Shown: positions 8,803-46,546 of the stretch, in pieces
Numbering within the stretch: position 1 is the first letter of the stretch
Layout of the letters: every line of letters begins with the position of its first letter
NCBI GenBank assembly: GCA_951406725.2
Contig: OX597825.1
Span: 12,090,001 to 12,154,000 of the forward strand
Length of the DNA: 64,000 bases
Source of the DNA: Octopus vulgaris
Taxonomy: Eukaryota
Reading direction: 5' to 3'
The notes under the pieces: model-generated
Told to the model about the DNA's origin: nothing
Seen by the model: only the letters and a program-made list of their open reading frames with translations
Databases searched by the model: none
Position numbers and translations under genes: made by a program

Positions 8803-10659
8803 GACTTACTTGAATAATATCATTCGATGATTTCGTTTCTCTGATACTGAAGCAAGGCCGTTTATTATCAATGTCTGTTGCTTCGGCGGAGGTCATGTTA
8901 GAACGTAAATATCTATAAGGAAATATCATTATATTTTGACATTCTTCACACTAAATGGCACGGATATAAAGAGGAATTAACAATGTGGGAAAGGATGTTT
9001 CAGTCTTTTAAGGTGTTGAATTGCATTATAACTGTTCCAGATGACCGGATTAGCCCGCTTATCTTCCGTTACCAACGCTTTCTTAAATCGATTAAGAGAA
9101 CAATGTGCTCACTTCTCAGGAAGTGACCAATTTGAGAAAATTTTCCGTTGTATGCAGCAGCGCTACAACTTATAAATATTCCGCTAGTTTTGAAGTTTTC
9201 GGCTGCAGTTATGTTATTTGGTTCGAGGTGGAAGTTACCAGATTTACCTAGCGTTCGAATTATGTTAGAAAATTTTAAACTCATAAGAACAAAGAAAATA
9301 GAGATGTAACGCGATATTTTGAAATTAAAGAAAAGTTCTTCAAACGAATATTTCGCCAAATGCTCATTAAATCGTCGCTTTAAGAACGAAGTTCTCTCGA
9401 TTTCTGACAGGTAAATTAACGATATATAATATTACCATGAAAGAATGTAAATAATGAGCTCTGAATACGTCAATTCCTTTTCAAGAAATAGAAAGTAGTT
9501 GTTGAGAAACAGCTAAAGTTGATGTAATACGGACGTTGAATGAGCAATGAGACCTTGATTTTCATATGTTTATAAATTAAGAATTGAATTTGTTTAATGA
9601 AGTTTGAATTTTAAATGCGGCAATGATTATCGCTGAGGTAATTTTATCGAAGCAATTTTTTTTATCAAAAGCTCCTCGTATTTGGGTTCGACATATGTTA
9701 AGAATTTTCCAGATGCAAATTTGCATCGTATTATCTCATATGTTGCTTCAATGTATCCGTAAATTTCCCAAGTCCATTACTAATGAATTATTTTTCAAAT
9801 ATTCAAAAACCACTTAGTCGCTAACTAAGCCTCTACTTTATGCTAAAAGAACACAATTCTCTTGGATTTTTTTAAAGATTTAATGCTGCAAAACATAATT
9901 TGTCGAAATGTATATTTGATCATTGTAAAATACTTCTTTACACCTATATCATCTGTTGTGATGTTTAACAGAATATTTAAGATGAGTGTTTGCGGTGTGA
10001 AACGCGATAGAAGAAGAATAGATAAGATTCCAAATATATTGCAAAGAAGCCATAAAACTCTTTCCAATATTTATCGCAGATATGTCAGATCTATATATAT
10101 ACTTTATGAGGAATACTGAAGCAATATATTTAAGAATTGTTATTTATATCTGGGTATAAGGAAGAAAAAATGCATTCCAATGTAAACATTGATATTATTA
10201 CTCAATAACAGAAATATCCATTAAAATCATCGTAAAAATCTTTAGTGATTCTTTATTGTATAACGATGTTTACTGAATTCCCACCAACCAATGCAATTTT
10301 ATATTTTGGCTTTTCATTGCACAATAGAAAATTATTGTGATTCAAACATATTCGTGACAGCTTTCTAATCTTTGCCCTCTGAAATATTGCGTTGATTCAC
10401 AAATGGTAAAATATTACAAATATTGATATTTTAAGTAAATTAAAATGGTTAACAAATTCGTACTTGTTTGGTAAATGTTTTGAACTGGGACCGAATATCG
10501 AATCTTAAATATTTATGTCATGGAATTTTCATAATTGTTGTTTGTGAACATACAAACATGTTATAGTCACTTTTCCTTTAAATGTATGGGTATAGCAACT
10601 AATGTAGTACAAAAACGTTTCCTCTCACATCTTCACCGATTGATTGGGATCCATTCTTC

Positions 10660-10840: not shown

Positions 10841-10893
10841 ATTTAATATTTCTAATAATAGATTGTCACAACGAAAAGTGGTTATAAGATATA

Positions 10894-11220
10894 AGGAGCA
10901 CTCCGTCGGTTGCGACGACGAGAGCCCCATCTAATACGATCAACGGAACAGCTTGCTCGTGAAATTAACGTGCAAGTGGCTGAGTACTCCACAAACACGT
11001 GTTCCCTTAACGTAGTTCTCGGGGAGATTCAGCGTGACACAGTGCGTGACAAGACTGGCCCTTTGAAATACAGGTACTACTCATTTTTAGCAGCTGAGTG
11101 GAGTGGAACAACGTGAAATAAAGTGTCTTGCTCAAGGTCTAAACGCGCCGCCGGGAATTGAACTTACGACCTTACGATCATGAGCCGAATGCCCCTAACC
11201 ACTAAGCCACACGCCTTCAC
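10894..11220 (-). mobile_element. tRNA-derived SINE family C, tail type X, 14-bp TSD
   Basis: Head GGCGTGTGGCTTAGTGGTTAGGG...AGTTCAATTCCC on minus. TSD GGTTATAAGATATA at 10880-10893 and 11221-11234. Confidence 0.92.
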
Positions 11221-11247
11221 GGTTATAAGATATACGAATATATTGTC

Positions 11248-11622
11248 TCGTTCAGAGATTTATTATTACTTGCAGACAGTTTTTCGAAATCAGTGACAGT
11301 AGTTACTAGAAAAACCCATAAGTATTTGCAAACAGGTCTTCCTTTTCCTCGTAAACCGGTGATCACCGTGCGTTGACAAGAGGCAAACACCTCGAAACTG
11401 CAGTCCGTGCGTATCACTTAGGCTTACGAGAGAGGGATGACGTCCCTTTGGAAATACCATAAGGGCACAGATAGTGTGCCTAAAGCCGGCTAGAGACGAT
11501 GATCTCCTGGGGCTAAAAGCTACAGTAACACCCACCCCTAGTGGTTAGCCATATTGAGATGGCTAGTATACTTTACGTTGTCGAGCGGTTACTGTTTACA
11601 TCTCGTTCAGAGATTTATTATT
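11248..11622 (+). mobile_element. retrozyme-like non-autonomous element: 355-nt monomer plus terminal redundancy, 12-bp TSD
   Basis: TSD GAATATATTGTC at 11236-11247 and 11623-11634. Direct repeat TCTCGTTCAGAGATTTATTATT at 11246 and 11601. Internal hammerhead and extensive predicted base pairing; no meaningful ORF. Confidence 0.75.
11359..11417 (+). ncRNA. type I hammerhead ribozyme, U3-A8 core variant
   Basis: Stem I CGTGCG/CGTGCG (two GU pairs) plus GTGAT/ATCAC, core TTGACAA 11373-11379, stem II GAGG/CCTC, GAAAC, palindromic TGCA, GTC; predicted cleavage after 11405. Confidence 0.75.
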
Positions 11623-12059
11623 GAATATATTGTCATTTGTTTTCAAATATACTGACATGGTCTTTAGTCGACGGGATTAATCTCCGTCAGCAGATATATC
11701 GCTATCCCAACCAGTTGTATCAACACTACAGCTTCAATAATCAATGAAGCAAACACTCCAACAGCAGCAACCAAACACACAAACACAAAATGTAGTGCTC
11801 GTGAGGAGGACCAACGAAGAATTGATGGCTCTCGTACTCTAATAGCCAGGAGGGACATCGAGAGAGAGAGAGAGGGGGAGTGATGTTCGCTAGTAGCTCC
11901 GTTCAAGTACCAGAAACAATAACGATGGTGCGGATACCTTTGAGAACATATAAAATCATTAGGGAGAGCTTCGTTTCCGACGTAGGAATCCCTAGTCTAA
12001 AAGCCAGGAGTAGGTTTTTAAGAGAGTTCCCAAATAAAATTTTGGGACTTCTAGAAAAT

Positions 12060-45367: not shown

Positions 45368-45426
<59 letters not shown>

Positions 45427-46546
45427 ATGAAAAAATCCAAATATAAGTACGGCCAGTCTTTCCACAAATACCTGTTGGAGAACTGGAAACGCTACTTAGA
45501 TGATTGCCTCATCCTATGGTCCCACACACTCGACCAACTTATAGACTTCAAAAACCTTATCAACAGTGTAAATAACAACATTCAATTCACAATGGAATAT
45601 AGTCAGGACCAACTCCCTTTTCTTGACATCCTAATCATTAAAAAAGCGTCAACATTGAAACTGACATCCATTACAAACCCACTGACTCTAAACAATACCT
45701 TCTATTCACCTCCAATCAGCCAAAACACACAAAGACAAATATCCCCTTCAACCTAGCGAGAAGAATCTGCACTATTGTCTCAAATGACACAACACGAAAT
45801 AGAAGACTCCGGGAACTAAGGGCAATTCTTCTCGAAAGACATTACCCGGCATCACTAGTAGACAACGGAATAGAACGGGCCAAATCAATCAACATTCAAG
45901 ACCTTCGAAAACCCAAACACATCCACAGTACAGTCAATAGCCTCCCTTATCTCTCAACACACAACCCAAGGAATGCAGAAGCTTACACTATTATATACAA
46001 CAACATTCCACAACTAAATCAAGACCCACGCCTGAAAAAAATACTGGCAGCTCATAAAATAATAAAAAGTAAGAGACAACCTAAATCCCTAAAAACCTCC
46101 TCACCAACGCAAAATTACACAACACAAACCCACCGCCCACCATCAAAAAATGTGGTCGCCCCAACTGTAAGACCTGCATCCACCTCATTGAGGGATCGTC
46201 GTACAAGTTCCACTCGGGACACACATTCATCATAAAAAATAACTTCACGTGCGCATCAAAAAATTTACTCTACGTCATAAGGTGTGAAGGATGCCACGAA
46301 GACTACATAGGGCAAACGAGCCTTACCCTCAGAGACAGAATGACAGTTCACCGACAACAACTGAGGGACCCCTCCACAAGACAGATACCACTAAGTGGAC
46401 ACTTAGACCTTTGTGCACACAATAAGTCCCCCAAATTCTTAGTCTTCCCACTATACCAATGCTCGGACAACACCACAGACCAAACACGAATAAATAAGGA
46501 AAGTAATCTTATTCAAAAATACAGACCACAACTAAACATACTCTAA
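45427..46546 (+). pseudogene. Penelope-like retroelement ORF (RT C-terminal half, Cys linker, GIY-YIG endonuclease), 5'-truncated with two frameshifts
   Basis: WKRYLDDC, IQFTME, LPFLDILI; after a frameshift near 45645, ETDIHYKPTDSKQYL and NIPFNLARRICTIVS; after a frameshift near 46095, CGRPNCKTC, NLLYVIRCEGCHEDYIGQT, RMTVHRQQ and PQLN. Confidence 0.93.

Follow-up and report, generated by a model that had tools for sequence, protein, structure and literature searches.

The window analysed here is a 64,000-nucleotide stretch of the Octopus vulgaris genome, in which a short repeat insertion occupies positions 11236–11634. A 12-bp target-site duplication (TSD), GAATATATTGTC, is present at both flanks (11236–11247 and 11623–11634) and encloses 375 bp, made up of one full 355-nt unit (11248–11602, plus strand) and a further 20 nt. 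The first 20 nt of the insert (11248–11267) recur exactly at 11603–11622, 355 nt on. This anatomy confirms the original prediction for the locus in its duplication, insert length and recurrence. The match grows to 22 nt when the final two TSD bases are included, that is, the last 2 nt of the left TSD also match the unit and the 5′ junction has a 2-nt microhomology. The unit as drawn starts at the 5′ truncation point of this copy, which differs from the family majority base at 14 of 355 positions.

The insert was also described as lacking a meaningful open reading frame (ORF) and a tRNA head, and this holds. The longest ATG ORF overlapping it is 56 amino acids, and ARAGORN finds no tRNA gene within it, a weak test that also missed the head of a neighbouring SINE. 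The unit is short, low in GC and non-coding, without LTR, PBS or tRNA head, and its multimers are head-to-tail units. We rejected a tRNA-derived SINE on the basis of that (weak) tRNA search, the closed unit and the two fixed ends, sites A and B, that the element has instead. The neighbour itself is an abundant SINE-like repeat of ~330 bp (10880–11234) with its own 14-bp TSD (10880–10893 and 11221–11234), ending 1 nt to the left of the TSD described above and having a minus-strand head that looks tRNA-derived by eye; the two are independent insertions in one AT-rich spot. Organisms A and B each have a single contig that spans the 3′ junction of the 375-bp insert with 1–2 differences, and thus both carry the insertion. 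The empty site expected in related genomes was absent from the joints listed in four runs. The copy is an aged passenger without sign of host function.

A type I hammerhead motif lies at 11367–11411 on the plus strand. Its stem I pairs 11367–11372 with 11406–11411 and is followed by the core TTGACAA (11373–11379), a 4-bp stem II (11380–11393), GAAA (11394–11397) and the self-complementary loop III CTGCAG; GUC cleavage is predicted after 11405, which is unit position 158. The motif had been called a complete hammerhead, and all core positions are indeed present, but the core departs from the textbook CUGANGA, U3 and A8 replacing C3 and G8, and helix III is reduced to one pair. U3:A8 covariation has been reported in Schistosoma Penelope-like element (PLE) ribozymes (PMC4209133, in excerpt), and Rfam returned no ribozyme for this sequence at gathering score or at E ≤ 10. 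With a one-pair helix III, cleavage is predicted to need a dimer, and a self-complementary loop III is the layout for dimeric cleavage according to the same excerpt (PMC4209133). This copy, having a single ribozyme with a weak helix III, is therefore likely to be a dead end.

The hammerhead sits on a long rod, an extended stem I predicted at 11323–11456 (plus strand) that spans the cut site. Both hammerhead and rod had been proposed, and the pairings named at that time are those of the minimum-free-energy fold (z −3.3; 1 of 200 shuffles equally good). The rod is predicted to hold both ends of an excised monomer together. As a linear RNA the whole unit folds with z −2.8 from either strand; strandedness is therefore assigned from the hammerhead and from the polarity of the copies, not from folding energy. 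Natural units folded as circles give z values of −3.4 to −5.8 (40 shuffles). Between the rod and site A, a run of short predicted hairpins (11464–11568, plus strand) is kept in all four families described below and may be the region recognized by the reverse transcriptase (RT).

The unit is not single-copy, in line with expectation: the full unit has 3,380 first-look candidates in the genome (identity 86–100% among the matches listed), a 70-nt 3′ piece 1,629 and a 100-nt 5′ piece 921, and an exact 16-mer at the cut site has 847 genome matches against 0 for its control. From the fetched loci we retained 73 distinct insertions of this family (family 1), after removing loci that overlapped on one insertion, as well as clusters that came within 80 nt of the edge of a locus or fell below 85% identity. 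The sampled copies are top-scoring matches, not a random draw, and are biased to copies like this one; the full-unit search is additionally biased to long copies. Family 1 copies differ from the majority base by ~3.5%. Sister families are family 2 (72% identical to the unit; 2,648 candidates), family 3 (61% identity over 171 nt; 360-nt unit; 2,887 candidates) and family 4 (72–75% identity; 353-nt unit; copies ~99% alike; 2,149 candidates). All four keep the closed-unit layout, with units of 353–360 nt and more than 2,000 candidates each. A literature search found no description of family 1, which Repbase, Dfam or supplements may hold; the available part of PMC6962438 reports Rfam hammerheads from a squid but does not analyse them.

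Tandem multimers, another anticipated property, were found as dimers and as one 10.2-unit array (L087, G000:C4:13620759–13624379) that is flanked by a TSD and terminates at site A. The units of this array differ by 0–4 substitutions and fall into mosaic types, and no clear case was found of dispersed copies descending from it (best 3 of 6 shared sites). The positions at which its units differ are concentrated in the tail, the segment between sites A and B, and immediately upstream of it. Family 4 (L242–L283) is very young, with copies ~0.4% from the majority and nearly all in TA runs, and is rich in insertions of 2–6 units.

Among the 115 terminal arms of the 73 family 1 insertions, 51 end at site A (unit 326–335), 53 at site B (17–30 nt into the next turn; four of these were scored from matches stopping at the unit boundary) and 11 elsewhere. 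The two sites are ~45 nt apart, and 5′ ends are variable. In the copy at this locus site A is internal (11573–11582, plus strand; mode 332, or 11579), whereas the 20-nt repeat of the unit start (11603–11622, plus strand) ends at site B, the fixed tailed 3′ end and the presumed start of reverse transcription. The interval 11580–11622 (plus strand) is a PLE-type 'tail' as defined in excerpts of PMC11167929 and PMC8557442, and the copy is a single arm started at site B. Forty-two insertions are two-armed, of which 33 combine A with B, 1 is B+B, none is A+A and 8 have an odd end; the 5′ ends are inside in all 42. The A+B combination accounts for 22 of 22 two-armed insertions in family 4 and for 9 of 15 in family 3, the latter count being indicative only as it was scored without clustering. 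In the unranked list of 847 16-mer matches, the first 100 include 10 pairs lying close together on opposite strands, and all 10 have the same orientation.

The target is a (TA)n run in 30 of the 73 insertions. Copies were expected to have individual TSDs, and an exact TSD of 11–13 bp is found at 23 of the 43 non-(TA)n insertions, compared with 7 of 1,860 random position pairs, so these flanking repeats are not due to chance; no TSD was detected in 17 of the 43. Copies were further expected to start at circularly permuted positions, which holds for the 5′ ends only, as the 3′ ends are fixed at two sites. In a length-unbiased sample of 55 arms, lengths range from 23 to 505 nt, 3 arms are longer than one unit, and 5′ ends pile up neither at the cut site nor at the length of one unit. 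The 20-nt overlap in the present copy is therefore just a stopping point, and the idea of copying 'once around' a template does not survive as a rule.

Fixed A and B ends, a tail at one end and inverted arms constitute the PLE 'tail' signature. In PLEs the tail is a stretch of 30–40 bp found at one end only of inverted insertions (PMC8557442, PMC3846280), and it covers the interval from one internal RT start site to the other, both strands being nicked in AT-rich DNA (PMC11167929), as far as the available parts of these papers describe it. Movement of a retrozyme by PLE enzymes, as originally suggested, is what the insertion anatomy points to, and the copies are not attached to a Penelope ORF. 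The repeat family is very probably a metazoan non-LTR retrozyme mobilized by a PLE. By the sequence criteria of such elements given in an excerpt of PMC7229834, family 1 has the unit, the hammerhead, the copies and TSDs longer than 4 bp, and our verdict is that it is a new member of the group. The class itself is known, and transposable-element curators would call the family a non-autonomous Penelope.

Described metazoan non-LTR retrozymes likewise have a non-coding unit of 150–450 bp with GC below 50%, a type I hammerhead with a weak helix III and palindromic loop, copies from monomers to multimers, TSDs longer than 4 bp and co-occurring PLEs (excerpts of PMC7229834, PMC7761336 and 10.64898/2026.07.22.740005); mussel units, at 350–390 bp, are comparable to the 355 nt found here. 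By comparison with these excerpted descriptions, family 1 differs in its U3:A8 core, in copies that are mostly sub-unit and often two-armed and not arrays, and in its fixed A and B ends, the helper there being only proposed; it also has no pLTR homologue among the PLE loci sampled here. Neptune-type PLEs with an endonuclease (EN+) share the two RT start sites, the optional tail at one end, head-to-head inverted arms, 5′ truncation and AT/TA target bias (excerpts of PMC11167929, PMC8557442 and PMC3846280), and EN+ PLEs also have a hammerhead upstream of the 3′ end, with a U3–A8 variant known (PMC4209133, in excerpt). Family 1 differs from the EN+ PLEs described there in having no ORF, a closed 355-nt unit, a ~50-bp rod round the ribozyme and a tail of 43–48 nt as against 30–40 in print, and its units lack sequence homology to the sampled pLTRs. 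Chlamys MRC1 and Chlamys-N4 are likewise non-autonomous PLE passengers, often head-to-tail multicopy, but, unlike family 1, they are from green algae, mostly lack a canonical hammerhead and have a 3′ end similar to that of their helper (excerpts of PMC8557442 and PMC9977147).

These features can be arranged into a possible cycle. Copies with two or more units would be transcribed, and paired hammerheads, acting through the self-complementary loop III, would release a monomer whose ends the rod would keep together for ligation. As read from the 73 insertions, a PLE enzyme would then nick AT-rich DNA with a ~12-bp stagger and start cDNA at A or B, often using both sites, one per arm, so that two-armed insertions arise head to head. 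Copying would run scar-free across both the cut site and the boundary between units, as seen in the genomic DNA, and stop at variable points. The arm at our locus would have set out from site B and covered 375 nt, one turn and a further 20 nt, before it ended, leaving a 5′-truncated copy that was likely inserted by a borrowed PLE reverse transcriptase/endonuclease from a probably circular monomer.

The cut site is passed by 24 of the 55 arms in the length-unbiased sample, and none of 86 and none of 81 read-through segments carries an indel there, against a background of 4–5% per window. The lack of indels argues against jumps between cut linear monomers, and fits both a circle and an uncut multimer. 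Derived bases are held in common at 0.9% (tandem) and 1.2% (inverted) of sites within an insertion versus 0.3% between insertions, an excess of three to four times that is also seen without CpG sites; sharing in family 1 is partial and involves roughly one-quarter to one-third of the derived sites. In family 4 we examined 38 insertions comprising 140 segments, after setting aside indels, a duplicated locus, a stretch that aligned poorly and all segments shorter than 40 nt. Ten variants recur within insertions, 7 of them are in every covering segment and 8 occur on both arms, whereas 5,000 shuffles gave means of 1.9, 0.2 and 0.9 and none reached the observed values. Two of these variants have 6 genome occurrences each, 3 and 4 of which fall in one insertion; their remaining occurrences are single and in sub-unit copies. 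Most substitutions in these data are single. The simplest reading is that one monomer was copied repeatedly, by both arms, although the shared variants could also derive from a lost homogeneous source array, from multimeric transcripts or from later gene conversion. On this sequence evidence we consider a monomeric RNA circle a probable template overall, and a rather more probable one if the element is a PLE-mobilized retrozyme at all. Assembled contigs of three runs that we guess to be RNA cover the unit; level, strand and circularity are not readable from such contigs, which we did not count as evidence.

The main competitor is the same PLE-dependent element copied from an uncut linear multimer, with a hammerhead that may act rarely or late. 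We regard this as unlikely but as the alternative to be taken most seriously, and its probability lies within that given above to a PLE-mobilized retrozyme. Uncut linear RNA is the main insertion substrate of an anole PLE in vitro (PMC11167929, in excerpt), genomic tandem copies exist, and scar-free read-through fits this template just as well. Against it, the two rare family 4 variants fill all units of one insertion, with no multimeric source elsewhere in the assembly, and two-ribozyme tandems at unit spacing are rare (1 pair in the first 100 of the 847 16-mer matches listed).

Conservation of the RNA motif bears on the same alternative, from both sides. Stems I and II covary within and between families, and a two-sided change is seen at 18 of 45 consensus pairs, a count over 16 related sequences without tree control. 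Loop III reads CTGCAG, CTCGAG or CATG across families and is always self-complementary, and compensatory change has preserved both the ~50-bp rod spanning the cut site and the palindrome of the loop over 61–80% identity, which tells against a template that need not be cut. We count these sequence patterns in favour of the RNA hammerhead and rod being under selection. The 3:8 pair is C-G in families 2 and 4 and U-A in family 3; in 52 family 1 copies it is U-A in 39, C-G in 8 and mismatched in 5. Seven of the 8 C-G copies (7 of 52 in total) carry U4C together with a C:A mismatch at the base of stem II. The spread of this core-mutant subfamily favours the linear multimer, as it may have occurred despite a weakened ribozyme, with cleavage dispensable; 8 of 9 Xenopus retrozyme dimers were without cleavage in vitro (10.64898/2026.07.22.740005, in excerpt). 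The subfamily with C3:G8 but U4C is found at L063, L064, L066, L069, L072, L129 and L143.

Far less probable is that the copies are ordinary stumps, that is, solo or partial-tandem pLTRs of an autonomous PLE. Their ends, inversions, TSDs and target bias are as in PLE insertions, U3:A8 hammerheads occur in PLE pLTRs both here and in print (PMC4209133, in excerpt), and our sampling covered part of the PLE families of the genome. However, upstream of the ribozyme the copies enter their own tail and never coding sequence; no PLE ORF is joined to the repeat in the 73 insertions; and a PLE protein match near the element (0.7–1.5 kb) was found at only 2 of 71 loci, both ~0.5–0.6 kb beyond the 3′ end and separate. 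The fetched PLE loci, obtained by GIY-YIG and PLE protein searches and representing a subset of PLE families, contain no pLTR homology to the units, and all four unit families keep their closed layout. The pLTR-stump reading is thus largely refuted. It is highly improbable that the family is a satellite or another repeat that spread as DNA, whether by unequal crossing-over or through extrachromosomal circles, and that carries the hammerhead as a relic. The dispersed copies bear the marks of retrotransposition, with 3′ ends at fixed sites, 5′ ends that vary, A paired with B and TSDs of 12 bp; DNA circles would not yield polar, fixed ends, and these end statistics refute the satellite reading for the dispersed copies. 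Single arrays may still have grown by such means, as the one 10-unit array, with its near-identical and partly mosaic units, and the satellite-type expansion proposed in an excerpt of 10.64898/2026.07.22.740005 suggest.

Candidate helpers are present in the genome, where several young PLE families encode RT and GIY-YIG with a CxxC linker. Three young PLE families have tailed and tailless ends in TA runs, with tails of 26–35 nt, shorter than the 43–48 nt (~59 nt in family 3) of the retrozymes, a difference that weighs against the PLE reading. Two young PLE families carry U3:A8 hammerheads, one of which has core and loop III letters in common with family 3. If the element is a PLE-mobilized retrozyme, its helper is probably of Neptune type, a label that refers here to the CxxC linker (PMC8557442, in excerpt) and not to a tree.

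At G000:C17:47.71 Mb (L317/L251, 47711400–47714100) a family 4 arm is joined 5′-to-5′ to a young PLE through 7 unassigned bases, with no TA spacer. The PLE is 5′-truncated, is 97–99% identical to its relatives (2,981 candidates) and ends at its tailed site, and both outer ends of the joint structure abut TA runs. This single case, in which the end of the retrozyme arm coincides with neither site A nor site B, is a candidate composite two-armed insertion; sequential insertion with a deletion is a possible explanation instead. A more far-reaching reading, which we rate as somewhat less likely than not, is that the four families directly record rolling-circle reverse transcription, in which a dimeric Neptune-type PLE enzyme would prime both target strands, copying one RNA circle made by the ribozyme from two fixed sites and recognizing it by structure and not by pLTR sequence, with the G000:C17:47.71 Mb insertion maybe a composite that names the helper.

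Excerpts of earlier work take PLEs as candidate retrozyme helpers (PMC7229834) and describe retrozyme repeats without a motif revealing the helper (PMC7761336). Both sources propose mobilization by PLEs and rolling cDNA but give no evidence from insertion sites, and PLE mobilization is supported by co-occurrence and a pLTR phylogeny for vertebrates in a set without a mollusc (10.64898/2026.07.22.740005). Within that partial view, the literature search found no description of A/B ends in retrozymes. Here the helper class can be read from insertion ends. In the 99%-identical family 4 the start sites of reverse transcription can be placed exactly, a candidate helper is available and the sharing of variants offers a test for the circle, which brings the mobilization step within reach of the in vitro PLE assay that already exists.

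Several apparent links between copies and PLEs were rejected. The sister copy at L088 lies ~600 bp beyond a self-contained PLE, the PLE at L127 is separate and on the opposite strand, and at L155 and L328 a TA run separates copy from PLE. Also listed among the rejected links is L118, where a copy lies ~45 nt from an RT fragment of unknown age. The L127 locus further contains, at 468–2311 beside a family 3 copy, a tandem ~594-bp repeat with internal inverted arms. At L318 (G000:C4:107.847 Mb), ~0.6 kb beyond a family 1 copy, there is a divergent PLE-like RT, 22–35% identical to the sampled families, that represents an unsampled PLE family. Within the window, an open frame on the minus strand (9069–9431) has a short stretch that by eye resembles a decayed GIY-YIG motif. 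A frameshifted PLE fragment with RT, CxxC linker and GIY-YIG lies at 45370–46546 (plus strand) and downstream and belongs to a young family with intact 776-aa ORFs; its 3′ UTR is made up of more than 1 kb of conserved microsatellite-like sequence.
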